IMG/VR virus record: IMGVR_UViG_3300018476_000013
Location: 14,301 to 78,300 of that record
Reading direction: 5' to 3' (one strand)
DNA length: 64,000 nucleotides
Source of the DNA: a virus
The position numbers and the translations under genes were made by a program. The notes under the pieces were generated by a model that was not told the DNA's origin, did no database searches, and saw nothing but the letters and a program-made list of their open reading frames with translations. Shown piece by piece: positions 4,397 through 38,800 of this stretch (position 1 is its first letter; every line of letters begins with the position of its first letter).

Positions 4397-4687
4397 ATGA
4401 TGTTCAAGATCAATGATGTGGTTGGATTTATCGACCAAGAAGCTTCCGCCCCGGTTCTCGCCGTCGCCGGTGATCAAGTCCTCGTGGCCTTTGGTCCCCG
4501 GTGGATCAATTGCTCGGACGAACCCAGCTTCATTGGCTGTGCCAACACCACCAACCCCAAGCTGGGGGATCTGGTGGAAGTCTATGGTGTCCCGGGACAT
4601 CATGAAATCCTCGGCCGTCGCGATGGCGATGTGCTGGTGGATACCGGCCCGACCTGGTACGACACTGAAACCATGTGCTTTATGTAA
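4397..4687 (+). CDS. hypothetical protein
   Basis: RBS AAGGAG; two similar beta-rich halves (K.[NG]D.V....[VI]L...GD.[VL]LV..GP.W). Confidence 0.7.
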   Translation: MMFKINDVVGFIDQEASAPVLAVAGDQVLVAFGPRWINCSDEPSFIGCANTTNPKLGDLVEVYGVPGHHEILGRRDGDVLVDTGPTWYDTETMCFM

Positions 4688-5163
4688 TGACCATGCGGTG
4701 GCGTCAAATCCCAGGATCTGACTATGAAGTTTCTGATTACGGTCAGGTTCGAAAAGGAAAAAACCTTTGTCGGGAATATATCCTCCCAACTGGTTATCGA
4801 TCTGTCTGGGTCAAGATCAATGGTCAGTGGGCACAAAAATACGTTCATAGATTGGTGCTCGAAATCTTTGTCGGTCCTTGTCCTCCCGGACAAGAATGCC
4901 GGCATCGGGATGGGGACAATGGGAATAATTATTGGAAGAATTTGAAGTGGGGGACACCAAAGGAAAATGGTCAAGACAAGATCAAACATGGGACAGCCCA
5001 AAATGGAGAACTCGTCCCCCAATCAAAACTGACGTGGGTGCAGGTCCGGTCAATCCGGAAAGCCCAAGGTCCTCGTGGACTCGGTAAAAAATTAGCAGAG
5101 CAACATGGTGTTTCTTCTGCAACGATATCGCTCATTCGAGCAAACAAAGGATGGAGAGAATAA
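4687..5163 (+). CDS. NUMOD4-HNH homing endonuclease
   Basis: WRQIPGSDYEVSDYGQVR (NUMOD4); VHRLVLEIFVG..CRHRDGDNGNNYWKNLKWGTPKEN (HNH); C-terminal HTH. Confidence 0.9.
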   Translation: MTMRWRQIPGSDYEVSDYGQVRKGKNLCREYILPTGYRSVWVKINGQWAQKYVHRLVLEIFVGPCPPGQECRHRDGDNGNNYWKNLKWGTPKENGQDKIKHGTAQNGELVPQSKLTWVQVRSIRKAQGPRGLGKKLAEQHGVSSATISLIRANKGWRE

Positions 5164-5164
5164 G

Positions 5165-5539
5165 ATGCGTATGTTTTTTTATGGAACATTGAAAGAAGGT
5201 TTCTGGAACCATAACCGTTTCATCGGTGGTTCAGAATTCCTAGGCATCGGTCGGACAGCTTATCGTTACTTGATGCTCGGGCATAGTGTCCCCATGATCA
5301 TGCCATCCAAGAAAGGCAAGCCGGTCACGGGTGAAGTGTACGAGGTGGATCGTTCCCGCTTGCCGGACCTGGATCGATTGGAAAGCGCCTATGCGCGGGT
5401 CCGTGGTGAGATCCGAATGGATGATGGCAGCACCATCTGGGCCAGCTATTACATCGGCCGAAACAAGCAGTACTGGCTGGGCAATGGTCCCAACCCATGG
5501 GACCACGGCGAAGTCTTCACCTGGAGCATCGACCAATGA
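5165..5539 (+). CDS. gamma-glutamylcyclotransferase (AIG2/GGACT-like)
   Basis: FFYGTLKEGFWNH, VTGEVYEV, LDRLE motifs. Confidence 0.88.
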   Translation: MRMFFYGTLKEGFWNHNRFIGGSEFLGIGRTAYRYLMLGHSVPMIMPSKKGKPVTGEVYEVDRSRLPDLDRLESAYARVRGEIRMDDGSTIWASYYIGRNKQYWLGNGPNPWDHGEVFTWSIDQ

Positions 5540-7277: not shown

Positions 7278-7472
7278 ATGGCAGCAGTAAAAAAGAAAAG
7301 GAAACGGGGTGGTGCTAGCATGCCCTGCCCCGAGTGTGGGTCTCATTCTCATGTGATCATCACCAAGAGGATAGATGACAAAGTTGAGCGGCAGCGGGAA
7401 TGCCTGGGTCGGCGGCCTCACAAATTTCACACTTACGAAGAGGTCAGTTATGAAGCTGTATCTAGCAGCTAG
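7278..7472 (+). CDS. NrdR/Ogr-like zinc-ribbon protein
   Basis: MPCPECG...RQRECLG..HKFHTYE resembles the NrdR N-terminal zinc ribbon; no ATP-cone. Confidence 0.7.
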   Translation: MAAVKKKRKRGGASMPCPECGSHSHVIITKRIDDKVERQRECLGRRPHKFHTYEEVSYEAVSSS

Positions 7473-7854
7473 GTTCGCCAGGCGGGAAAAATTAGTAACC
7501 GACGCCATCCCATTCCTAGAAGAAGATGGTCACAAGATCACTTCACGATGGTTATGGGAAGAGGATGATGGAGGAGAAGGCGCGGCCCGGATCTGCCTGC
7601 AGGACATTGACAGGTCTGAGGCCGTGGTTCTTTTCACTGATCCAGTGGGGTCAAAGAATGCAGGTGGCGGTCGTTGGTTTGAAGCTGGATATGCTTACGC
7701 CAACAATCGCCGCCTGTTCATTGTGGGTGAACAAGAGGCCGTGTTCACTTACCTGCCCCTGATCACTGTTTGCCAGGACGTCGACCACTTACGGCGTGAA
7801 CTCGACAACTACAATACCGACCTCATTAAACATCTGGCGCGTCCACTCAGCTGA
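7450..7854 (+). CDS. nucleoside 2'-deoxyribosyltransferase / nucleotide N-glycosidase-like protein
   Basis: KLYLAARF, DIDRSEAVV, GRWFEAGYAYA, VFTYLP pattern. Confidence 0.75.
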   Translation: MKLYLAARFARREKLVTDAIPFLEEDGHKITSRWLWEEDDGGEGAARICLQDIDRSEAVVLFTDPVGSKNAGGGRWFEAGYAYANNRRLFIVGEQEAVFTYLPLITVCQDVDHLRRELDNYNTDLIKHLARPLS

Positions 7855-8217
7855 GGATTTCCAGGGCTCACGGTCAAGCGGGGGTGGAGTGATCACCCGC
7901 TTGATGCCCCTGGAGACAATGGACTTGGCGCATTCATTGCACGGAAACATCGTCACTGCTAATGTGCTGCCCTCTAGATCGAAGTGGGCATTGTCCAAGG
8001 CATTGCGTTCAGCGTGCTGGGTCATGGCGTACTTGGTATTCTTATCCAGCAACCGCTCAGGGCTGTCTTCTATGCCAGGCGGAAATCCATTGTAGCCGAT
8101 GGTGATGTTCCGGCGGTCTTTGCCGACAATGACTGCACCCACTCGCGTGGACGGGTCCTTGCTCCACACAGCTACATGATGGGCCAAAACAAAATATCGT
8201 TGATCCCAGTCGGTCAT
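7789..8217 (-). CDS. dCMP deaminase
   Basis: SKDPSTRVGAVIV, GYNGFP, HAERNA, PCNEC zinc motifs. Confidence 0.93.
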   Translation of the reverse strand: MTDWDQRYFVLAHHVAVWSKDPSTRVGAVIVGKDRRNITIGYNGFPPGIEDSPERLLDKNTKYAMTQHAERNALDNAHFDLEGSTLAVTMFPCNECAKSIVSRGIKRVITPPPLDREPWKSSAEWTRQMFNEVGIVVVEFTP

Positions 8218-8390
8218 CAAACAAATCCCTTTTCTTCCGCCAGCCATTCAGGCATGGTGAAGGTCCCATCTTTGTTGTCCTCGACCTGGGACTTGGGCAC
8301 CCATTCCGTTTTGATCCCATCGAAAAGACGATACGCTTTTTCCGTTTCGCCTCGGAGCTCTGCCGCTATGTCGATAAGCTTTTCGGCCAT
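8217..8390 (-). CDS. small conserved phage protein
   Basis: ETEKA..WVPKSQVE..TMPEWLAEEKG; translationally coupled. Confidence 0.7.
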   Translation of the reverse strand: MAEKLIDIAAELRGETEKAYRLFDGIKTEWVPKSQVEDNKDGTFTMPEWLAEEKGFV

Positions 8391-8758
8391 CACGCTACCA
8401 GATCCGAAAGGTCCGGGGCGGTCCAACCCATGGGCTTGACTACATCATGAGCCGATCCCCGCTTCGAGTCCGAACCATCGGCCTTGGCCTTGACTTTCTT
8501 CATGTTGGCTTCGTGAACCCGCTTCCATGCTTCATCAAAGTCAAAGCCGTGCAGGTACGCTGTGCCCAGGGCGACATAGACCAGATCGACCAAAGCATCG
8601 AGCTTGTCCTCTAATGGATACTCACAATATTCGGTCAGCTCCTCGGTCATGAATTTCAATCGGAAGGATGCCAGGTCATCCGGCAATTGCCGAGGGCCGT
8701 CAGTGTAGGCCAATCCGAATTTCTCGTGGAAATCTTTGATGTCAGAATAGAAGCTCAT
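8390..8758 (-). CDS. MazG-like / PRA-PH nucleotide pyrophosphohydrolase (all-alpha dUTPase-like)
   Basis: EELTE..DALVDLVYVALG..VHEANMKK..VVKP.GW..PDL. Confidence 0.88.
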   Translation of the reverse strand: MSFYSDIKDFHEKFGLAYTDGPRQLPDDLASFRLKFMTEELTEYCEYPLEDKLDALVDLVYVALGTAYLHGFDFDEAWKRVHEANMKKVKAKADGSDSKRGSAHDVVKPMGWTAPDLSDLVA

Positions 8759-9105
8759 ATGATCACTCGTTTCCTTGGTTGGAGAGGTGGTAGGTCTTCC
8801 AGCATAAAATCTAATGCACGGCCAATCGGGGTCGATGGCTGTCCATCAGAATCTCTTAAACACGCTTCACGCAAGTCAGTCACGGGACATCCATGCTGGA
8901 TGGCCAATGACACAGCAATGGCAGCATCAGAGGCAGCCATGTCCACTTCACTGCCGGCACGGCCACTGCTGTTAAGGAATAGTTCACCAGGTTCACCGTT
9001 GTCGTAATATCCAATGGTGACATGGTACTTCTGATTTTGATGTTCGAACTTGATCGTCTGATGAGCCCGACGATTGGGAAGTCTGTTTCGCATTACACCA
9101 CCCAT
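8755..9105 (-). CDS. stand-alone TSCPD-domain protein (class II RNR C-terminal-like)
   Basis: RNRLPNRR, PGELFL, AIAVSLAIQHG pattern. Confidence 0.75.
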   Translation of the reverse strand: MGGVMRNRLPNRRAHQTIKFEHQNQKYHVTIGYYDNGEPGELFLNSSGRAGSEVDMAASDAAIAVSLAIQHGCPVTDLREACLRDSDGQPSTPIGRALDFMLEDLPPLQPRKRVII

Positions 9106-10618: not shown

Positions 10619-10876
10619 ATGGACGTAGTAAAACTGACGGAAGAACGAGGTCAAGTCCATGGGGACTTTACCGACGTATCGGAGATCGCCCAAAGCTTAA
10701 AGGCCGTTGTCCGTAATGGCAAGTCATTCAATCAATTGACGAGGGTGCAGGTTGAAGGCCTCGACATGATCCTGCACAAGATCGCCCGGATCGTTTCGGG
10801 CAATGCCAACCACCATGATCATTGGGATGACGTCGCCGGGTATGCTCACATCGTATCGAAGAGGATCACCAAGTAA
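10619..10876 (+). CDS. DUF6378-like protein
   Basis: ERGQVHGDF..MILHKIARIVSG..HDHWDDVAGYA. Confidence 0.75.
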   Translation: MDVVKLTEERGQVHGDFTDVSEIAQSLKAVVRNGKSFNQLTRVQVEGLDMILHKIARIVSGNANHHDHWDDVAGYAHIVSKRITK

Positions 10877-12243
10877 TGTGTGGCTGGGTAGCACAAGCTG
10901 AAGTTGAAAACGATGAGCACTTCGCCGAAGCCATTCGGAGGATCAGCCATCGCGGCACTCGAGTGACCATCAAGGAAACAAACGGCAGCATCCTTGCTCA
11001 CTCCCGTTTGCCGATTGTCGGGCTGTCAGAAAAATACGACCAGCCCGTCGAGACGGATGACTGGCTGATTGCATTCTCCGGGGAGGTCCTGGACTTCAGG
11101 GAGGAAGACCCCGCTGCCGAATGTGATTTGCCTCTCGTTGTCGAGGGTTGGGAGCGGTATAAGTCCAAAGCCCTCAGGGGCCGGGATGGGTTCTGGAATA
11201 TCATCGCCATCGATAAAACAGATGGAACGCTCCACATTACATGCGATTACCTGGGACAGAAGCCAGCCTATTACCGGCAGGATGTTCTGGCTGCCGCTTC
11301 CGAACCGGATGCATTACTGCCCCTCGGGCCGGTGACATTCGATGAAGTGTACCTGGCAGCGGTGATCAAGTGGGGATACTGCCCGGAGATCGAGCGGACC
11401 CCTTACAATGAGATCAAGAAAGTCCGGCCGGGGGAGCATATCCAACTGGATGATCTTGGGACATTCGGCCAAGGACAAATCGTCGATCAATTGGTGCCCC
11501 GGCCAGGTGACCTGCGGAAGGAAATAGAACTGGCCGTCCGCCGGCGGGTAATGGCATCAGATGTGCCGGTGGCTTGCTTGTTGTCGGGTGGATTGGACAG
11601 CTCAATCGTTTATACCTTGGCCTCGTGCTATGGCCAGGTCAAGCCATATTACGTCGACCTCGGGGACAATGACATAGAAGAACGAATGGCCGTTGGTGCT
11701 GTCGCCGGCAAGGCCAAGGTCATGGAGGTCAACGGTTCTTCACTTGACATCCCGGTGATGGAGCAACTGGACTACATGCAAGAGCCCATCGACCTGGGTT
11801 CGTTGGTGCCACAGATCGCTTTGGCCCGTGTCATCCCTGAGAATGTTTGCCTGACGGGCGATGGTGCTGATGAAGTGTTCGGGGGTTATGGCAGGGCATA
11901 TCGTTATGACAGCCAGGGCTCGGATGTATTCCATGAATTGCCGGCGTGGCATCTGCCGCGGCTTGATCGGGTGATGATGAGGCACCTGATTGAAGTACGC
12001 AGCCCATTCTTGTCCCGCCGGGTGGTCGAGATTGGATTGTCCTTGCCCAGGGAATTGAGGACCGGCAAGCGGATACTCCGGGAAATCTTCCGGGACATCC
12101 TGCCTAAGAGCATTGCCGATCGGGCCAAGAAGCCATTGCGGATGCTGGGCATCAATGAAGCCCATCGCATTCATATGGTCAACGAGTTCAAACGGCGTCA
12201 TTACATCCGCAATGAAATGGATGTCGAGGAGATGAGTCGATGA
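10876..12243 (+). CDS. asparagine synthetase B-like glutamine amidotransferase
   Basis: N-terminal MCG nucleophile, HSRLPIVG, LLSGGLDSS PP-loop, LTGDGADEVFGGY, EVRSPFL. Confidence 0.9.
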   Translation: MCGWVAQAEVENDEHFAEAIRRISHRGTRVTIKETNGSILAHSRLPIVGLSEKYDQPVETDDWLIAFSGEVLDFREEDPAAECDLPLVVEGWERYKSKALRGRDGFWNIIAIDKTDGTLHITCDYLGQKPAYYRQDVLAAASEPDALLPLGPVTFDEVYLAAVIKWGYCPEIERTPYNEIKKVRPGEHIQLDDLGTFGQGQIVDQLVPRPGDLRKEIELAVRRRVMASDVPVACLLSGGLDSSIVYTLASCYGQVKPYYVDLGDNDIEERMAVGAVAGKAKVMEVNGSSLDIPVMEQLDYMQEPIDLGSLVPQIALARVIPENVCLTGDGADEVFGGYGRAYRYDSQGSDVFHELPAWHLPRLDRVMMRHLIEVRSPFLSRRVVEIGLSLPRELRTGKRILREIFRDILPKSIADRAKKPLRMLGINEAHRIHMVNEFKRRHYIRNEMDVEEMSR

Positions 12244-13745
12244 AGAAGCCAAAAGAAAAGCAATTGATTGCCGTGGGGATCACCTGCGGCATTGGTTCAT
12301 TGCTCGTGGGCGCCAAGGCCGCAGGGTTCAAGGTCGCGGGCAATGTGGAGTGGCGGAAATATTACCACCACCAGGACGAAACCGAGCGCAACACTTTCAC
12401 TGAGAATTTCCCTGGGGCGATCTTCCCCAACTCAGTGGAGCAGATGACGGAAGAAGAGTTCAGGAAGTTCAGCAACCCGGACATCGCTTTAGGCCATCCA
12501 GAATGCGGCAACTTCAGCGTGCTGAATGGCGCCCACAAGGACCGGCTCAACATGATGCTGGACCCTGCTGACATCCCGCTCTTCGTCGATCTGGTAGCCA
12601 AGCTGAAGCCCAGGTTCTTCGTGATGGACGACCTGCCCAAGTCCTTCATGGCGTACCCGATGGAAAAGTACGCAGAGAAATTGCCGGACTATGACCTGTA
12701 TCCGGAATGGATCAGCAACTGGGGCTACGGCAACGTCCAGAAGAACCGGAACCGGATGTTCATGCTGGGCGCGCTGCGGGCCGAGCGGTGGGCTTTCCGG
12801 CCGGGTGAGCAGGAACATACCCTGACCGTGGAAGATGTCATCGGTGACCTTGCTAAGCCATCTGTGAGGGGCAATATGCCCAATCATGACCCCCACGACC
12901 TGAAGTCCGTTTGTGCCAAGGCCCTGAACCTGGGTGAGTGGCGGAAACGGAATACCTGGGGCGAGGTCCAGAAGTACTTCGCCGACAAGGGCGGCGGGTT
13001 CACGCTGGAATATACCAGGGATGACGGCAAGCGGCTGAAGAGGATCGGCTTCCTCAAGGGCCATTGGGACGGGCCATCGCATGTGCTGACTGGTGGCAAT
13101 GCCATCCTGCACCACAAGCGCAATGAACCCTACACCATCCGGGAGCGGGCGCGCATTCAGGGCTTCCCTGATGACTTCGTCTTCTATGGTGCCAAGCTGA
13201 ACCCCAAGGGGGAATGGGAGCATGATGGTGACGGCACCATGGTCAAGCAGACCGGCAAGGCCATGCCAGTGCAGTTTGCTGAATATGTGTCCAAGCAGAT
13301 TGCTGCATTCATCAACAAGGAAGAGTTCGAGTCCAGTGGCCGCCGGGTGATCCCGCCCAATGAATACGTCGACCAGGCCAAGCAATGGTACTGCCAGAAT
13401 GTCGGCTATTCAGTGCAGAAGAAAGCATGTGGGGAATGCTGGCTCTTCAACAAATGCAGCATCAGGTCCGAGAAATACCAAATCGGTCCGCGCGCGCATA
13501 CCACAAAATCCGTTGTGGAAGAATGCCCCACAAATCAGCGAATTACGGGGGCTGTTTTAGGGGGAAATACTAGGACGCGTCAAGGGGGGCTCATGCCCTC
13601 TGCCAAAAAGCCTAATGAAATCAAGGTCCGTGAGGCCAAGAACACGGGAGGGACCAATAAAAAAACGCCCTCCCGAGATCCCCGAACTGGCCAGTCCAGG
13701 AAAACTGTCCATCAACCCATCGAAACCACCATTGAAGAGTTTTGA
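12240..13745 (+). CDS. divergent C5-cytosine DNA methyltransferase homolog (candidate carboxymethyltransferase)
   Basis: Motif I TCGIG, motif IV GHPECGNFS, motif VI VMDDL, motif VIII QKNRNR, motif IX TIRERARIQGFPDDF, motif X KQTGKAMPV; C-terminal Cys cluster. Confidence 0.88.
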   Translation: MKKPKEKQLIAVGITCGIGSLLVGAKAAGFKVAGNVEWRKYYHHQDETERNTFTENFPGAIFPNSVEQMTEEEFRKFSNPDIALGHPECGNFSVLNGAHKDRLNMMLDPADIPLFVDLVAKLKPRFFVMDDLPKSFMAYPMEKYAEKLPDYDLYPEWISNWGYGNVQKNRNRMFMLGALRAERWAFRPGEQEHTLTVEDVIGDLAKPSVRGNMPNHDPHDLKSVCAKALNLGEWRKRNTWGEVQKYFADKGGGFTLEYTRDDGKRLKRIGFLKGHWDGPSHVLTGGNAILHHKRNEPYTIRERARIQGFPDDFVFYGAKLNPKGEWEHDGDGTMVKQTGKAMPVQFAEYVSKQIAAFINKEEFESSGRRVIPPNEYVDQAKQWYCQNVGYSVQKKACGECWLFNKCSIRSEKYQIGPRAHTTKSVVEECPTNQRITGAVLGGNTRTRQGGLMPSAKKPNEIKVREAKNTGGTNKKTPSRDPRTGQSRKTVHQPIETTIEEF

Positions 13746-13766: not shown

Positions 13767-14663
13767 ATGCACGGCGAGAAAGTTCACATTGTCAAGGGGC
13801 AGACCCCCGCTGATTATCACTGCACCTGCAAATTCTGCCAGAAGGCCCTGGGGGAATTGTTGAAGCCTGATGGGACATATTACAGCCGGCTGGAGCGCCG
13901 GAAGTATTATGACCCCGCTGAGTCGGGCAAGAAGGAAGGGGCGCACATTGCCAAGACCCCGCTCCACATTGCCCGCTGGGCCATCCAGAACTATTCTAAA
14001 CCAGGTGACTGGGTTCTTGATCCGACCATCGGCGCAGGCACCACGGCCGTCGAGGCCATCACCCAAGGCCGCAACGTGGCCGGAATGGAAATCGAATTCG
14101 GCGAAGTGCTGAAGAAGAATATCCAGGCCGCACTGGTACTGGCCAATGGGTCGAAGCCCAAAGCCAAGATCGGCCATGGCGATGCCCGCAACATCAGTGC
14201 CTTCCTCGACAAGGCCAAAGTTGAGAAGGTGCAGTTGGTCATCAACAATCCACCCTACTCAGGCGATGCCTCGATGCCGTCGCCCTCCAAGGAAGGACGG
14301 GGTGCCGCTTACCGGGACAAGGAAACCTATTTTTTCTACGACAAGTCCCTGCCGAACTTGGCGTTCCTGAAAGAGGGCCAAGAGTATTGGGATGAGATGA
14401 CAAAAATCTACAAGGCATGTGCTGACCGACTTGAAGTCGGCGGTCACTTCGTCATCGGCATTAAGGACATGAGCAAGAAGAAGCAGCCTTATCTTCTGCA
14501 CAAGATGTTCTGTGAAATCCTGGAAGAGATGAAGTTAAAATTTGTTGGCACGGCGTTCCTGAACCATTACCCTCGAACCCTTCACTTGAACACGTGCGAG
14601 AAGTTTTATGGCTTCAAGCCGCCGTTCTTCCAGACCATCAACGTATTTAAGAAAGCAAAGTAA
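13767..14663 (+). CDS. amino (N6-adenine/N4-cytosine) methyltransferase
   Basis: VLDPTIGAGTT SAM-binding motif followed by NNPPY. Confidence 0.87.
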   Translation: MHGEKVHIVKGQTPADYHCTCKFCQKALGELLKPDGTYYSRLERRKYYDPAESGKKEGAHIAKTPLHIARWAIQNYSKPGDWVLDPTIGAGTTAVEAITQGRNVAGMEIEFGEVLKKNIQAALVLANGSKPKAKIGHGDARNISAFLDKAKVEKVQLVINNPPYSGDASMPSPSKEGRGAAYRDKETYFFYDKSLPNLAFLKEGQEYWDEMTKIYKACADRLEVGGHFVIGIKDMSKKKQPYLLHKMFCEILEEMKLKFVGTAFLNHYPRTLHLNTCEKFYGFKPPFFQTINVFKKAK

Positions 14664-16520: not shown

Positions 16521-16705
16521 CTGGTTACCCAAAAGGAGAATTCCCTGAGATCGTTTACCAAGGGGGTCAGACAGGTTGGTGTCTGACATCCCATAAGAGT
16601 TATGAGTTCGAAGACCACATGGAAGCAGTTATTGCTTTGTTGCCGGAAGGGCCGGTTAAAGAAAACCAGATCGAGTGGTTCAAAGAACTCAAGAGGCGGA
16701 AATGA
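16517..16705 (+). CDS. small hypothetical protein
   Basis: ATGA overlaps at both ends. Confidence 0.55.
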   Translation: MTGYPKGEFPEIVYQGGQTGWCLTSHKSYEFEDHMEAVIALLPEGPVKENQIEWFKELKRRK

Positions 16706-17547
16706 AATACCTCGGCGAATATCTGTCTTTCAAACCTGTTGCCAGATTGATCGAAGGCCAGATCAAGGAAGCACCCCCTGTCCGCACAGAACGCTGGCAG
16801 GGGGTGGCGCATAACCAGGACACGCGTGAACTGCTGAACGCCTCATTCATGGTGGATCTGCAGTGCATCGAGGATCTGGATCATTGGCGGAAGGACATCA
16901 AGACCAATCTGCCTTGGGCTGATGACCACTTCATGGAGCGGATCGGCGGCCAGCCATTGAACCCTGGTGTTCAGTGGGCGAACTGGCCGTGGTCCCGGTC
17001 AGCAGCCAACTTCAAGCAGGACAGGTTCAATCATACCTACATGGAAAGGCTCTGGCCCAAGTTTGCCCGCCGGACTGCTGATGGCCGGTTGCCGATGGGC
17101 AAGGGTGCAAGGAAGTATCCGCAGACAGACAACCGGCCAAAGCTGGGGGTCGGCTGGGCTTATGGGGACTTGCTGGATCTGGTGGAGTTGCTGGTCAAAG
17201 AACCCCACACTCGCCAGGGATGGATACCGCTGTTCTTCCCTGAAGATACGGGCATCGGGGATGGCGGCCGCAAGCCCTGCACCCTTGGCTATCAGATCAT
17301 TGTCCGTGATGGCAGAGCCCATATCTATTATCCCCTGCGGTCATGTGACTTCATCCGGCACTGGGCAGATGATTGCTACTTGGCTGTGCGCCTGTTGCTG
17401 TGGGTCATCGATGAATGCCGCAAGAGGTCGGAGTTCTGGAAGAACATCGCACCAGGCACTTATTCGATGCACATGACTTCTCTTCACATCTTTGAAACGG
17501 ATCTTAAGACCAATGAGCAAGCCGAGGCCACCGCAACAAGTATTTGA
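16702..17547 (+). CDS. thymidylate synthase-family protein, dCMP-type (hydroxy)methylase candidate
   Basis: KPCT catalytic Cys, RSCDFIRHWADD (Asp at the ThyA Asn177 position), SLHIF. Confidence 0.85.
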   Translation: MKYLGEYLSFKPVARLIEGQIKEAPPVRTERWQGVAHNQDTRELLNASFMVDLQCIEDLDHWRKDIKTNLPWADDHFMERIGGQPLNPGVQWANWPWSRSAANFKQDRFNHTYMERLWPKFARRTADGRLPMGKGARKYPQTDNRPKLGVGWAYGDLLDLVELLVKEPHTRQGWIPLFFPEDTGIGDGGRKPCTLGYQIIVRDGRAHIYYPLRSCDFIRHWADDCYLAVRLLLWVIDECRKRSEFWKNIAPGTYSMHMTSLHIFETDLKTNEQAEATATSI

Positions 17548-32849: not shown

Positions 32850-35800
32850 ATGCCGCTTCCCGTCACTATCACCGGCATAAGCACGGCGGTCGCACCGGTT
32901 GGGCCGTTTGCTGTCGCACCAAAGATGGGGCCGCTCGTTATTAGTACGGCGCTCGGCAATCTCATCACGAGCATGGGGTCTTCAGCAAACGGTACGGAAC
33001 GAGTTGGACAGGTTTTCACTGTTGGAGAGAATGGTGGAAGTCTTGCGTCTGCCCAACTGTTCTTGCAGAAGGTCGGTGCGCCAACAGACAACATTGTCGT
33101 CAATGTCTACAAGGCGGATGCTGCCGGTTTGATCCCGACAGGGGCATCGCTTGCTACAGCTAGCGTACTAGCATCAACCGTCGTGAACGGCAGTTGGATT
33201 ACCTTCACGTTCGCGACACCGCTCGCGCTCACTGCGAATACCAAGTATGTCCTGACCGCCCAACGCAGCGGCGCGATAAACACTTCGAATTACGTTAGTT
33301 GGTACGGCGGGGCAGACACGTATCCCGGTGGCTACTATTGTGTCTACTACTCTACAACCGGAAAATGGACAACAGAAACGCCGTACTTCAACGGCCACTG
33401 CATGTTGCTTCAGCTATTCGATGCTGGTGTTGGCACCTCGACATTGATCACAACGACTGTGGCGACCGCGCTCACACCATTCGGCAACGCGGCTAGGCCA
33501 CAGGTCGGGCAGACATTTACAACGACCGGCGATCTATCCATCACCAAGATCGGCTTCCGGCTTAGGAGAACGAGCGGTAACACCACCGATCAGATCGCAG
33601 TTGATATCTACGCGACAGATGCGGGTGGTTTGCCGACAGGCCCGTCGCTTGGGCGCGCCGCTGGGCCGACCAAGTGGATATCAACGTCACGCAGTGACGA
33701 GTATTCATTCTGGTTCGATGCCCCTATCGCCCTCGTTGCGGGGAAATATGCGGCGGTGCTGTCGCGCACTGGGTCAACAGACGAAGCAAACTATTTTAAT
33801 CTTCTAGGCGCATCGACAGATGTTTATGCAGGCGGGTCGCTGGTGTCGTTCAACGGCACAAGCTGGAGCGCAACTGCATCGTCGGATGGCGCACTGAAGA
33901 TCACCTATCTCACAGTGCCGACTTATTATCTGTTTGGCTTTAATGACATTGGTGGCTCTGATGGCAGGCGGCTTGTTACTCTGAAGGCCGATGATCCTTC
34001 ATCAGAATGGACGTTGATAAATAGCTTGCCGACAATCGGCAACACGCCGATCTATCAAATGGCAGGCTATCAGGTTGGCGGCGTTTTCCACATTCTGTTG
34101 AGTCAGTCAGGCTCCCCAACTATCAACGATGTCCGTTATTGCAAATGGGATTCCGCGACTGATAGTTGGGCTGTCAACAATGAAACTGTTGTCGCCAACG
34201 TATCGATGACGGGAACGACTTTCGCCCAATCGAATGGTGTTTCTTTAGTTGTTCGATCAACCGGTGATGTGGTTGCGTTCTATAACGGTGCATCAAGCAA
34301 CACATCAGGCAAGCCTTACTGCCGGTTGTACTATCGCATTCGCAGCAATGCCGGCACATGGGGCACAGCGGTCAGGGTCGATGCCAATACAGCGTTTGAC
34401 AATACTAGTCCTGAAGCCGTCCTGGGTGCCTCTGACATTGTTCATTTTCTGTGGGCGATCTCTTCTAGTATGCAGCATCGGGCTTTGTCGGCTGCGAACG
34501 CTCTGCAAACCGCCTCGACATACAGCATAACCAGTTGGGCACCAGAACAAGCCATTTCATATTCTAGTGCAGGTGTGACCAAAGTTGTCGCCGTCTCAAC
34601 AAATGCGGCCAATAGAAATACGGCAGTTCGTTTTGACAGCGGGCTCACCCCAACACTGGCAGGGACCTCTACTGGTAACAATGCTAATGCCCGGACGCCA
34701 AGCCGTATTTTTAACAATGGAGAAACACTTCACGTTCTCGAGTTACTTACAACCGCTAGTGATCTTAACATTACGTCATCAACTGACCATGGAGCCACTT
34801 GGTCCGCTCATATGGTAGCTTTTGCCGGGACAGTCGCTACATCTAGTACCAACCTTTCCAAAGACGCTACTATTTACCAGCGCGACAACAATTTTGTCAT
34901 CCCCTACCTCGTCAACGACAACGGGATATGGAAATACAACGAGTATGATGTCACGCCGCCAACAGTGGATGCGTGGAATAGAGCCGACAAATCTGCCAAC
35001 ATCACGTTATCGAACGCTGACAAGACCGCAATCGTTTCTGCTACGGGAGCTAGTGGTGTTCACTCGACGCAAACCCAGATGTCAGCGACAGCAGGGAAAT
35101 ATTATGCCGAATTAAAAGTTGAGGCGGTCGGCGGCCAGCTTGGCATGCAGATGACGGCCACTGATGAGACCAACGCTGGTTTCGCGAACAGCTATTATGT
35201 CGGCACTGACGGAAGGATTTGGTCTTCCACACAAGTTGTAGGCACTGTCGGCAGCGCCCTTGTTGCTGGAGATGTTGTCTGTCTGGCTACGGATTTCGGT
35301 GCCAAATTATATTGGTTCAAGAAAAACAACGATTTCTGGAATAACAGCGCTACGGCTGACCCTGCAACCGGCGTTGGCGGATTGGCTTCTTATGGTTCAG
35401 CGTTTCCATTCTCGCTTTGGTTTGGTGGTGGCGCAATAGGTTCTGGTGCCACTATCCGCACCGAGCTTGCCGATTTAACCCTACAAGGACCGGCCGGCTT
35501 CACAACATGGATGGGCGAGGTCATCCCGCTGCCGTCCATTGCCGATGCATGGAACGTCAATGACGTTGGCGTTGACGTTTCTCAAAATCTATCTAACGGC
35601 GACAAGACCGTGACAGCGACCGGCGCGGGTACTGGCGCAGCCAGATCGACGCAAAAAAGGGTCAACGGTCAGGCAGGTTTGTACTACGCGGAATGCCGTG
35701 TTGATCAACCTTACCTTCGTTTCGGGCTAAAACTCGTTACAAGCGCCATCGCAAGTCAAACTGCGGATGCGTTATACGTCAGCGACCAAGGACTTGTGCT

Positions 35801-38800
35801 GTTCAATGGTGTCACGCAAATCAATCTTGGAAGGCAGCCTATTGCAGGCGACGTAATATCGATTGCGTGGGACAGCGGGGCAGAGAAATTTTGGGCTCGG
35901 ATCAACGCGCTCCCTTGGAATAATAACGTAGCGGCTGATCCGGCAACAGGAGCTAATGGATTAGATGCGTCAGTTGCCATCGCTGGCGATTGGGCGCTTT
36001 GGTTTCAGAGTGGTGTCGCTTCTTCCGCCGGGACCATCCGCACCGAGAAGGATGAATTTACTCAGAGCACACCGGCAGGCTTCCTGTCATGGATGGGCGA
36101 GACCCTTGTCATTCCTGACATGGGCACCTTGGTTTCTGGTGCTGCATCCATCACTGGTGTCGGCGACGTTACATGGGCGGGGACAGGTAACCTTGCTCCG
36201 CAACCTAGTACAGTCATTGGATTAGCTGCTTCCCGTTCAACCGGCACTGGTGCGTTGGTGGCGGTTGGATATACGCGTACCAATCTACTCGCTCGCTCAC
36301 AAGAATTCGACATGTGGGCGGCTGAGAATGCGCTTCGCACAGGCAATACGACGACAGCGCCTGATAGCACGTTGACGGCAGATACGCTATCGGACGGCGT
36401 GGCCACCGGCACACATTACCTCTATCAACAAAATCTTCCTGCAACAAGTGGGGCGAATTATACATTCTCTGTTTACCTGAAGGCGGGCACCCTTAATTGG
36501 GCGCAGGTGATGCTCATCACACCCAATGTGCGTTGGGCAAACTTCGATCTTTCAACAGGCACGCTTGGACAGAAAGAATCCGCAGCCGTCACTGCGTCCC
36601 GTACCTATGTTAGTGATGGATGGTGGCGTTGTTCTGTTACCGCTACCCTGCAAGCCGGTACTAACTACATCGGCGGCTTCATTGCCCTGAAACAGGCAGA
36701 TGTTGTTTTCTCCCAGCAACACACTGGCACTGGCGCGACCTTCTATGCTTGGGGCGCACAGCTTGAGCGGGGTGATGTCGCGACGGCGTACATTCCAACA
36801 ACAACCGCCGCCGTCACTATTTCAGAAACACTCATTGGCACCGGCACCGTAAGCTGGAATGCAACTGGTGCGTTGAAATCTGGCGAATCCCGCACCAACT
36901 ACTTGGTGCAATCGCAAGCCCTCGCGTTCTATCCGCCGTGGAATACGCTGCGTCTCGTCGTCACCGACAACGTCGTAGCTGCGCCAGACGCGACGATGAC
37001 AGCGGAAAAGCTAGCCGACACTGCCGTCAACGATTCGCATTACCTGATGCAATACGTGGACACGGTTGCAGAGACCTACACGTACTCATTTTTCTTCAAG
37101 AACAACGATCACACCGGCTGGGTGCAGTTATCATCAGGCGGTGGTTGGGCGAACTTCAACATCGCGACTGGTGTTACAGGTTTAAAAGTCGGAGTGACCT
37201 CGGCAATCGAGCCGCTGGCAGATGGTTGGTATCGTTGTTCGATAACCGGCGCGATGCCGGGGGGCTCGTCAATCAACTTCAACATTTACCTGATGCTAGC
37301 TGACGTTTCGTCGCGGCTCTACCTTGGAAGCGGTAAATCAATTTATGCGTGGGGCGGTCAGATAGAGCGCACGCCTGCTCCGACAGCTTACATTCCGACA
37401 ACAACTGCACCTGTAACTATCGGCAATTCACCACTTCTAACTGGTGCTGGTGTCGTCACTACACCACCTGCTTATGGTACGGGCGCACTGACCACGAGCA
37501 TTGCTGGTCTTGCTGGACTAGGTATCTCCAGTTCGGTTGGCACGGCGCCATTGGTTGCGGCAGGAAAGACCCGCATCAATCATTTCTTGTACTCGCAACA
37601 GTTTGATATCGGCACATGGACGAAGGCCGCTAGTGTCATCACTGCTGAAAATGCGATTGCACCAGATAACACGCTGACGGCAGATCTTCTGACGGATACC
37701 GTTGCGAGTGCTAACCACTACATGATGCAAAGCGGCGTCGGTTTTACGGCGCCAATAGGCACCAACACATATTCGATTTACATCAAATCAAAGACGTTGA
37801 CATGGATACAGCTACGGGTCTCTGACATAGATACCTTCTGGGTCAACTTCAATATCGTCACTGGTGCGAAAGGGCTAGACTCGGCGAATGGTCTTACGAC
37901 AATTATCACGCCGGTAGGCAATGGCTGGTATCGTTGTTCGGTAACATTTCCGCATCCTCAAACTAACTGGAATGCGAATTGTTTCGTCATCATGCAGGTG
38001 GCGGATGAACCGATATCCAATTTTGTCGGCACCGGATTGTCAGCCTGGTTGTGGGGTGCGCAATTTGAATTGGGCGGGCAAGTCACCGCTTACATACCGA
38101 CAATAAACTCAGTTGTATCTGTCACTGATGTCTTGACTGGTGTTGGCCTCATAGACAACACGGGCACTGGTGTCCTGGTTGTCACGCAGCCCGCTACACT
38201 CAGTGGCGAGGGCGGCATACAGTGGAATGCTACTGGTGTGCTGGCATCCCATCCAGCAACCGTGGTCGGTGTCGGCAAAGCTGTTGATCCTCCGACCACC
38301 GGCACTGGCGCACTGATATCACTGGGTATTGCTGCGGTCGCAGGCACTGGTACATCGGCATCGATTGGTGGATCGATCGCCAATGATCTTGTGATCTATG
38401 GCGGCACCAAGAACCAATATACATGGGGCAGGACTAGTGTCAGCGGCATTGGGCAGGTCTTTATCGCTACCGGTCCGGTGATCACACAAGTAACGCCGTA
38501 TATCGGGAAAGTCCTTACGCCGACCGACTCAGTAGTGGTGAAGCTTTATACTTCGGCTGGTGGTTTACCAGGGACATTGCTCGGTACTTCAGATCCGATC
38601 CTCGGATCAGACCTGCCAAATTCTAATTCATTGCCGGTGACGTTTACGTTCCCGACGCCGATCCCAGTCCAGAATGGCACTTCATACGTCGTTACATTCA
38701 CGCGCACGGGCGCGTTCGATGCCAACGGTTATTATCTGAATGGCTACGTCTCCTCCAGTATTTATGCTGGCGGCGGAATGATAACGATGAGCAGCGGCTC

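Follow-up and report, generated by a model that had tools for sequence, protein, structure and literature searches.

We analysed a gene encoding a protein with the fold of the DNA cytosine-C5 methyltransferases (C5-MTases), located in a 64,000-nucleotide stretch of phage DNA (hereafter, the window), which corresponds to bases 14301-78300 of the 78.3-kb IMG/VR record IMGVR_UViG_3300018476_000013 (estimated completeness 92%). Rather than being a broken or ordinary methylase, the protein probably performs one step of an uncharacterised DNA base hypermodification. More precisely, we see an even chance that it is a post-replicative, Cys-dependent DNA transferase, which would act on a 5-substituted cytosine derived from the product of a thymidylate synthase (TS) homolog and make a carboxyl side chain that is amidated by the product of an adjacent asparagine synthetase-like (AsnB-like) gene.

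The protein matched the Pfam family PF00145 (DNA_methylase) over residues 15-354, with E 3.5e-19 and a score of 69.8 bits (cut-off 22). A preliminary description of this DNA, made from the letters alone, had placed the end of the gene at 13470, which is too short; the stop of the open reading frame (ORF) was found at 13745, 275 bases further. The AlphaFold2 (AF2) model, computed with 58 homologs as input, had a mean predicted local distance difference test score (pLDDT) of 86. Residues 1-426 were folded and confidently predicted, residues 427-492 had a pLDDT below 50, and the tail was not conserved among homologs. The predicted structure is the two-domain DNA C5-MTase fold with a target-recognition domain. 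In a Foldseek search with this model, DNA C5-MTases came first, namely M.HaeIII (1DCT; template modelling score of 0.71 on the target), followed by 3g7u and M.HhaI, with SpCmoX (8YF3) at rank 7; the Foldseek probability was 1.0 for both M.HaeIII and M.HhaI. A nucleotide search of the region against cultured phages gave no match, and a protein search against them found weak matches to ordinary methyltransferases (MTases) only.

Motifs were placed by an HMMER alignment of the protein to M.HaeIII (Table 1). As in the canonical enzymes M.HaeIII and M.HhaI, we found the same fold, the same order of motifs I-X, the catalytic Cys, the QxRxR motif, motif IX and a target-recognition domain. Unlike in these enzymes, the Pro and the Gln that flank the catalytic Cys, the first two residues of ENV and the motif X Asn were replaced, and the replacements were then fixed. 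In motif IV, the replacing residues were Glu88 and Gly90, on either side of the invariant Cys89. The codon of this predicted catalytic residue, which was found in all family members, is at 12504-12506. The motif II-III stretch was retained (E37, W38, Y41, N56, F57). Lys340 occupied the Asn site of motif X, which corresponds to N304 of M.HhaI, N374 of M.MpeI, and R350 of SpCmoX. The alignment agreed with the preliminary description on motif I (TCGIG), motif IV (GHPECGNFS) and motif VI (DDL, from 12627), and the catalytic Cys, the QxxRxR motif VIII, the RIQGFPDDF sequence and the Cys cluster after motif X, all of which it had reported, were confirmed. The Cys cluster region was helical in the model (pLDDT 91-98) and was missing in some shorter distant members. 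The last intervals of its spacing equal those of the [4Fe-4S] loop of the EndoIII/MutY glycosylases (C-X6-C-X2-C-X5-C), and the element could be an Fe-S or a zinc DNA-binding structure.

Table 1. Features of the window discussed in the text (positions are those of the window).
Feature	Position	Strand	Basis
C5-MTase-fold transferase gene, 501 aa	12240..13745	+	ORF call, Pfam PF00145, AF2 model, Foldseek
Motif I, T15-C-G-I-G19 (canonical F-x-G-x-G)	12282..12296	+	ITCGIG on LFSGAGG of M.HaeIII
Motif IV, G85-H-P-E-C89-G-N-F-S93	12492..12518	+	GHPECGNFS on GGPPCQSWS
Motif VI, D130-D131-L132 replacing E-N-V	12627..12635	+	FFVMDDLP on FFLAENVKG
Motif VIII, Q167-K-N-R170-N-R172	12738..12755	+	QKNRNRMF on QDRKRVF
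Motif IX, RERARIQGFPDDF	13140..13178	+	RIQGFPDDF on RVQGFPDDF
Motif X, G339-K340-A341	13254..13262	+	GKAMPV on GNAVPV; K340 codon at 13257
C-terminal Cys cluster, C385-X11-C397-X2-C400-X5-C406	13392..13457	+	Alignment, AF2 model
Variable, basic, disordered C-terminal tail of the C5-MTase-like protein	13518..13742	+	pLDDT, homologs
Divergent thymidylate synthase homolog, dCMP type (RSCD-x7-D)	16675..17547	+	phrog_160 1.5e-22
MazG/PRA-PH-like nucleotide pyrophosphohydrolase, candidate dCTPase	8390..8758	-	Pfam PRA-PH 4e-11; phrog_671
dCMP deaminase	7789..8247	-	Pfam dCMP_cyt_deam_1 9.5e-22; phrog_174 5.7e-46
AsnB-like glutamine amidotransferase/amide synthetase	10876..12243	+	Pfam Asn_synthase 4.4e-38, GATase_6/7
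DUF6378 small helical protein, first of an overlapping three-gene string	10619..10876	+	Pfam DUF6378 3.1e-8
Permuted N6A/N4C-type DNA amino-methyltransferase (NPPY)	13767..14663	+	Pfam N6_N4_Mtase 3.9e-17

Conservation was determined in the 58 aligned homologs, which share 49-96% identity. H86, C89, G90, D130, L132, Q167, R170, R172, G339, K340, C385, C397, C400, and C406 were invariant, and T15, G17, G19, P87, E88, and D131 were conserved in at least 90% of the homologs. The family is large, with 618 relatives found at E <=1e-5 by a word-indexed search and 101 clusters below E 1e-30 when representatives at 50% identity were searched exhaustively. When the motifs of about 200 proteins were tabulated, they formed a gradient, from a core family with HPEC, DDL, GKA, and the four Cys to distant members with HPxC, DNL (rarely ENL), and G[KR]x; position 340 was invariably Lys in the core and Lys or Arg in the wider family. 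As judged from these alignments, the rewired motifs are conserved and constrained and do not reflect decay, because they are invariant or nearly so across the 58 homologs. The proposal that coordinated changes, rather than decay, had shaped this gene thus held for the 58 homologs as well as for the ~200 proteins; DDL and GKA were conserved together, and no close homologs with ENV and GNA were found.

In some relatives (P0013, P0056, P0077, P0089, P0122, P0125, P0126, and P0131), an intein carrying a DUF559/MTES_1575 homing endonuclease interrupted the protein precisely at the junction of Glu88 and Cys89, which corresponds to 12501-12506 of the window. The N-extein ends with GHPE and the intein with HN, followed by CGNFS, with Cys89 as the +1 extein residue. 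Catalytic sites are typical homing targets of inteins. Together with the invariance of Cys89, Q167, R170, and R172 and the retained motifs II-III, the position of the inteins suggests that the protein is still a catalyst. Some phages carried tandem C5-MTase-like paralogs (L017:8689-11465 and L020:4389-6826), whose sequence specificities may differ. Bacterial genomes yielded three matches, one of which was a binned phage contig and one a frameshifted fragment. The latter (L094:9929-10785), located on a 2.78-Mb contig of an alphaproteobacterial metagenome-assembled genome (MAG), covered residues 5-214 with 58-64% identity and had neither an AsnB nor a TS gene next to it; it may be what remains of a prophage and may hint at the class of the host.

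The genome was compared with 35 related IMG/VR records (first set) and 30 more distant ones (second set). The stop of the AsnB-like gene overlaps the start of the C5-MTase-like gene, and the AsnB-like protein has an MCGW N-terminus, with Cys2 as the N-terminal nucleophile, and an intact SGGLDS PP-loop (LLSGGLDSS). In all 33 of the 33 first-set loci with upstream DNA included, an AsnB-like gene was located at most 3 kb from the C5-MTase-like gene.

When the motif residues of about 60 distinct loci were compared with their gene neighbourhoods and mapped on a maximum-likelihood tree, two residue signatures were observed. His86, Gly90, Asp130, and Lys/Arg340 were present in all TS-linked members, regardless of the presence of the AsnB-like gene. 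Thr/Ile15, Trp38, and Glu/Asp88, on the other hand, were found only in members with the AsnB-like gene, whereas members without it had Tyr/Phe/Leu15 and Lys/Ser/Pro/Tyr88. Residue 88 was acidic in 44 of the 44 members with the AsnB-like gene and in none of the 10 members without it, and the tree indicated four losses or gains of this gene, each with a concordant change of residue 88. Since the first set of residues tracks TS and the second AsnB, EC and TxGxG would represent an amidation-coupled state of the cofactor pocket, and DDL and GK a TS-linked state of the base pocket. The changes in the protein are coordinated, as had been proposed, but they do not form a single block. The two signatures provide concrete targets for mutagenesis.

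An ordinary sequence-specific 5-methylcytosine (5mC) MTase with neutral motif variants, serving anti-restriction beside an unrelated AsnB-like gene, would be consistent with the PF00145 score above threshold and with the retention of the fold, the catalytic Cys, and the S-adenosylmethionine (SAM)-binding motifs; the tandem paralogs of L017 and L020 also resemble multi-specificity MTase sets. We nevertheless consider such an enzyme very unlikely. Three of the best conserved residues of C5-MTases, namely Asn in motif X, Glu in ENV and Pro in PC, were replaced, and the replacements were fixed family-wide. SpCmoX, the sole tested homolog with a cationic residue at the motif X site, used carboxy-S-adenosylmethionine (Cx-SAM) only, not SAM, and its R350N variant was inactive with either cofactor (PMC12783734). 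In addition, neither the coupled AsnB-like gene nor its covariation with residue 88 would be expected for an ordinary methylase.

The second partner of the C5-MTase-like gene was a divergent TS homolog, for which the best match in the PDB was the CMP hydroxymethylase MilA. The segment RSCDFIRHWADD of this protein aligned without gaps to R166-N177 of ThyA and had Asp at the N177 position; N177D is the switch to deoxycytidine monophosphate (dCMP) specificity (PMC13326640). The other residues described in the same study were also found, namely RKPC with the catalytic Cys146, and R166, S167, and D169. Because Asp169 is kept, the protein is not of the 5-hydroxy-dCMP synthase type. Asp was found at the N177 position in 49 of the 49 aligned TS homologs encoded beside C5-MTase-like genes. 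In a search for a second thymidylate synthase, neither the ThyA nor the ThyX model of Pfam gave any match in the genome.

The TS homolog was present in 31 of the 35 first-set records, including 10 of the 10 complete ones. In the second set it usually adjoined the C5-MTase-like gene directly, and each of the five near-complete records had it beside that gene. With our own genome, all 16 records that were at least 90% complete (10 of the 35 and 5 of the 30) thus contained it, and roughly one in two distinct loci had it at most 500 bp from the C5-MTase-like gene. In every near-complete genome, the C5-MTase-like gene was accompanied by genes for the TS homolog, for a MazG-like pyrophosphatase and for a dCMP deaminase, the last being detected in 25 of 36 neighbourhoods. 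In the complete genome L052, the gene order was kinase, pyrophosphatase, C5-MTase-like gene, TS homolog, deaminase, and PolA. The pyrophosphatase of the window was 55% identical to the one encoded beside a 'pyrimidine hmase' in MW202777 and Brevundimonas phage Strzyga, in both of which a kinase gene was also found beside the pyrophosphatase gene; MW202777 encoded a ThyX as well. Among the Pfam families in the accessible part of the MetaGPA supplement, Thymidylat_synt, dCMP_cyt_deam_1, and PRA-PH were the most enriched in contigs of cytosine-modified phages, and Asn_synthase and DNA_methylase were not found in that part (PMC8670742). Among the four alternatives put forward in the preliminary description (uracil, an already modified cytosine, a nucleotide, or a bulkier cofactor), an already modified cytosine was the best supported, through the linked dCMP-type TS, MazG-like pyrophosphatase and dCMP deaminase.

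A C5-MTase homolog with a tailored cofactor is known from CmoX of Synechococcus phage S-B43, which uses Cx-SAM made by a phage CmoA to form 5-carboxymethylcytosine (Yang et al. 2025; PMC12783734). In SpCmoX, Arg350 (the position of HhaI Asn304) contacts the Cx-SAM carboxyl; CmoY, an asparagine synthetase homolog, adds glycine to 5-carboxymethylcytosine, and for a second cluster of ligases, which carry a glutaminase domain, the use of ammonia was predicted, the protein being insoluble (PMC12783734). The C5-MTase-like protein of the window shares with CmoX the phage origin, the fold, the catalytic Cys, a cationic residue in motif X and a partner resembling asparagine synthetase, an ATP-dependent (AMP-forming) amide ligase; 8YF3 was also a strong structural match. 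It differs in having Lys for Arg, HPEC for SPPC, DDL for ENV, and TCGIG for FxGxG, in the added four-Cys tail, in Asp130 at the position of the conserved, N4-contacting active-site Glu, in the linked dCMP-type TS, and in the lack of CmoA, which most CmoX contigs have. The published survey, which required SPPC and R350 and counted 5615 CmoX, 4257 CmoA, and 2251 ligases (PMC12783734), would have missed this family.

CmoA (TIGR00740) was found in none of the 66 records searched (own genome and both sets), whereas the same search detected gp125 of Streptomyces phage TurkishDelight at 1.3e-26. A tblastn search with gp125 also gave no match. The three MAGs with relatives of the C5-MTase-like gene likewise had no CmoA, a weak point given the unreliability of binning. 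The TurkishDelight locus comprised two ParB genes, gp123, gp124 (GATase and AsnB-like), and gp125 (CmoA-like). Its gp123 was of the CmoX type (GSPPC, AENV, GRAVP), with marginal profile similarity to the family of the window, and no TS was found in this phage. The AsnB-like protein of the window had the same two-domain architecture as gp124, with 27% identity over the full length (E 2.5e-25), although the partner of gp124 is a CmoX with SPPC, ENV and Arg, accompanied by CmoA. This ligase type is probably the 'second largest cluster' typified by A0A7T0Q3R0 (PMC12783734). The pattern is reciprocal: CmoA occurs with CmoX in one kind of phage, and the dCMP-type TS with the family of the window in the other.

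The main rival to a transferase acting on a modified base is a Lys-type analogue of CmoX. Such an enzyme would use Cx-SAM from the host's CmoA on plain cytosine, the AsnB-like enzyme would convert the resulting 5-carboxymethylcytosine into 5-carbamoylmethylcytosine, and the TS would be unrelated or supply deoxythymidine monophosphate (dTMP). Lys340 is invariant at the site where Arg350 of SpCmoX contacts the Cx-SAM carboxyl, Lys or Arg is found there in the wider family, and cationic substitutions at the same site gave carboxymethyltransferase activity to M.MpeI (N374K) and M.CviPI (Y205K/R), as reported by the Kohli laboratory (PMC13288465). The AsnB-like neighbour is homologous to the GATase-bearing ligase beside the CmoX-type MTase and CmoA of TurkishDelight, a ligase type predicted to use glutamine-derived ammonia, and E. 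coli CmoA alone was sufficient for SpCmoX in vivo (PMC12783734); the structural match to SpCmoX was good. We nonetheless consider this explanation unlikely, though less so than the other alternatives discussed here. The absence of CmoA from all 66 records contrasts with the ratio of CmoA to CmoX in the published survey, and the family has neither SPPC nor the Glu of ENV, which that study had used as a criterion or observed to be conserved. With the linked dCMP-type TS module, the C5 of the phage cytosines would already be occupied, and Lys or Arg at position 340 was equally present in members without the AsnB-like gene. Moreover, although Lys340 is at the site structurally equivalent to that of M.MpeI N374K, the M.MpeI and M.CviPI variants are single-site changes acting on plain cytosine with PC and ENV intact, whereas in the family of the window the base pocket is changed too. 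The bulkier cofactor suggested in the preliminary description, carboxy-SAM, is thus favoured by analogy at Lys340 and disfavoured by the CmoA search.

According to the mechanism that we propose, the MazG-like pyrophosphatase and the dCMP-type TS homolog would produce a 5-substituted dCMP, most likely 5-hydroxymethyl-dCMP, which would be built into the phage DNA. The C5-MTase-like enzyme would flip the modified base, with Cys89 adding to C6, Asp130 contacting N3/N4, Arg170 and Arg172 contacting O2, and His86 and Lys340 facing the 5-substituent. A SAM-family cofactor may be held by the retained motifs I-III, and the 5-hydroxymethyl group would be replaced by, or extended with, a side chain carrying a carboxyl. 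This carboxyl would then be adenylated by the AsnB-like enzyme, whose gene is translationally coupled, and amidated with glutamine-derived ammonia. As donor, host Cx-SAM could supply its carboxymethyl group, SAM could supply its aminocarboxypropyl group (the amino-acid end being bound by Glu88 and Lys340), or an amino acid could serve as the nucleophile; a SAM-type donor is favoured because the adenosine-binding motifs are retained. We infer 5-hydroxymethylcytosine (5hmC) in DNA, its role as substrate, the donor and the amide product from these genes and residues. In a narrower form, which we put forward tentatively as a possible but less probable account, this descendant of the C5-MTases no longer acts on plain cytosine but swaps or extends the hydroxymethyl group of 5hmC with an amino-acid-like or carboxyl chain, without carboxy-SAM; the AsnB-like enzyme would amidate this chain, and the NPPY MTase may methylate the amide.

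Several arguments favour a 5-substituted cytosine as the substrate. If the TS module replaces cytosine, an enzyme alkylating plain C5 would have no substrate in the phage DNA, and yet the genes are inseparable. A differently substituted base would fit the changes in the residues that contact the base (H86, G90, D130), for which CmoX has had no need. C5-MTases reportedly couple thiols to 5hmC in vitro, according to work of the Klimasauskas laboratory. M.MpeI carries out Cys-dependent transfer onto 5hmC, with loss of formaldehyde followed by re-alkylation (PMC11347137). Both are slow in vitro side reactions of normal enzymes, but they follow the same Cys-dependent chemistry as proposed here, and these precedents make a dedicated 5hmC enzyme chemically plausible. 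We know of no natural enzyme dedicated to such reactions.

Other points weigh against the proposed mechanism. To our knowledge, no natural C5-MTase homolog works on 5hmC, and we infer the presence of 5hmC in the DNA of this phage from its gene content. All TS homologs of the clade, including those of the cultured MW202777 and Strzyga, had an invariant Arg where ThyA has L143, three residues upstream of the catalytic Cys; this residue is not among the characterised signatures, which makes the product of the TS homolog uncertain. No deoxynucleoside monophosphate (dNMP) kinase was found in the phage, in four close relatives, or by Pfam scans of the remaining early ORFs, and without a recognisable dNMP kinase the incorporation of the TS product into DNA is not assured in this clade. 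The co-occurrence of the TS could partly reflect common descent within a single viral lineage, since the TS module also occurs in related cultured phages that lack the C5-MTase-like gene. The sign test on residue 88 and the AsnB-like gene was not significant, with two of the four contrasts located on well-supported branches. Finally, retained SAM motifs together with a cationic motif X residue are just what the use of carboxy-SAM on plain cytosine would predict.

The residue signatures also bear on a SAM-dependent 3-amino-3-carboxypropyl (acp) transferase acting on plain C5. In this case SAM would be turned, with Glu88 at its alpha-amino group and Lys340 at its alpha-carboxylate, methylthioadenosine would leave, and the AsnB-like enzyme would amidate the product in a diphthamide-like manner. 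This reaction needs no CmoA, agrees with the retained adenosine-binding motifs, and accounts for the restriction of two features of the cofactor pocket, the acidic residue 88 and the non-aromatic residue 15, to members with the AsnB-like gene. MTase-fold acp transferases, such as TYW2, exist. The C5-MTase family, however, offers no precedent, we read the reaction purely from residue charges, and the linkage to the TS would be unexplained unless the hydroxymethyl group were first removed; on balance, we find this improbable.

In some genomes, the C5-MTase-like gene was found among genes for nucleotide-pool enzymes (kinase, pyrophosphatase, TS, deaminase), which would fit free nucleotides (dCMP or 5-hydroxymethyl-dCMP), or uracil, as the target instead of cytosine in DNA. 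Both targets had been suggested in the preliminary description, and both are now disfavoured to the point of being scarcely credible. Against uracil, the protein retains an acid (Asp130) at the N3/N4 contact as well as the two arginines of motif VIII, and the TS homolog linked to it is of the cytosine type. Against nucleotides, the modelled DNA C5-MTase fold has two domains and a complete target-recognition domain and resembles the structures of MTases bound to DNA, and the protein carries the Cys-cluster domain. Moreover, in at least nine representative clusters the C5-MTase-like protein continued at its C terminus into a fused N6/N4-MTase (P0075, P0121, P0123, P0127, P0138, P0139, P0143, P0144, and P0156; also L015:9962-12271). 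These fusions and the target-recognition domain of the model point to DNA, not nucleotides, as the substrate.

The gene set of the window resembles T4-type cytosine replacement, in which a dCTPase, a dCMP hydroxymethylase and a dNMP kinase are followed by glucosyltransferases, and for which a 5hmC carbamoyltransferase has also been described (PMC8670742). A pyrophosphatase, a dCMP-type TS homolog and a dCMP deaminase are likewise found here with a DNA-acting tailoring enzyme. In contrast to the T4 type, tailoring would be carried out by a C5-MTase homolog and an amidotransferase, a combination not described for 5hmC, and a dNMP kinase could not be recognised in this clade.

Both the fold and the principle of combining a tailored C5-MTase with an amide ligase have been known since 2025. 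The family of the window, which comes from soil and freshwater phages, is a distinct, large and unsurveyed variant whose motifs differ, which lacks CmoA and which has an obligatory TS partner. Phage DNA hypermodifications defeat restriction and CRISPR, and are a source of tools for methylome sequencing, such as carboxymethyltransferases. If the 5hmC reading is true, the family would bring new enzymology to a much-studied fold, along with a new base, and a third way to tailor 5-hydroxymethylpyrimidines, besides glycosyl or carbamoyl transfer and kinase-activated substitution. If a Lys-type carboxymethyltransferase is true, the known set of such enzymes would be widened and a first route to 5-carbamoylmethylcytosine provided.

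Among the flanking genes, the NPPY methyltransferase had TTHA0409, M.MboIIA, CcrM, DpnA, and one N4C MTase as relatives in the PDB. It was observed only in loci with the AsnB-like gene (about 22 of 44, versus none of 10 without it). NPPY enzymes can also methylate carboxamide nitrogens, as HemK does, and by analogy the enzyme could act on the amide product. About 16 related loci had a DUF6378 gene 5' of the AsnB-like gene, and in many other relatives a kinase gene was located just 5' of the AsnB-like gene; this slot contained either DUF6378, as in this clade, or a P-loop tmpK-like kinase (L019:7509-7898 and equivalents).

An Amidoligase_2 gene and an AIG2/GGACT gene were considered as core genes of the pathway and rejected, the amidoligase being present in only 3 of 31 related genomes. 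In the genome bases before the window, an Amidoligase_2 gene (L088:12024-13052; PF12224, 4.7e-40) is followed by a gene for an AIG2/GGACT-like gamma-glutamyl cyclotransferase (L088:13055-13654), and a second GGACT-like gene was observed at 5105-5539 of the window. The pair may provide an add-on tailoring step or protecting-group chemistry.

The same phage was present in soil metagenomes of several studies (24 sequencing runs, mostly from soil and all available as assembled contigs), and none of the 24 was an RNA run. Other genes of the early region encoded an HNH_3/NUMOD4 homing endonuclease (4675-5163, + strand), a protein with a weak nucleoside 2-deoxyribosyltransferase-like match (7375-7854, + strand; E 2.4e-3), and a small TSCPD-domain protein (8755-9105, - strand; E 2e-4). 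The late region contained one ORF of 2774 aa (32850-41174, + strand).

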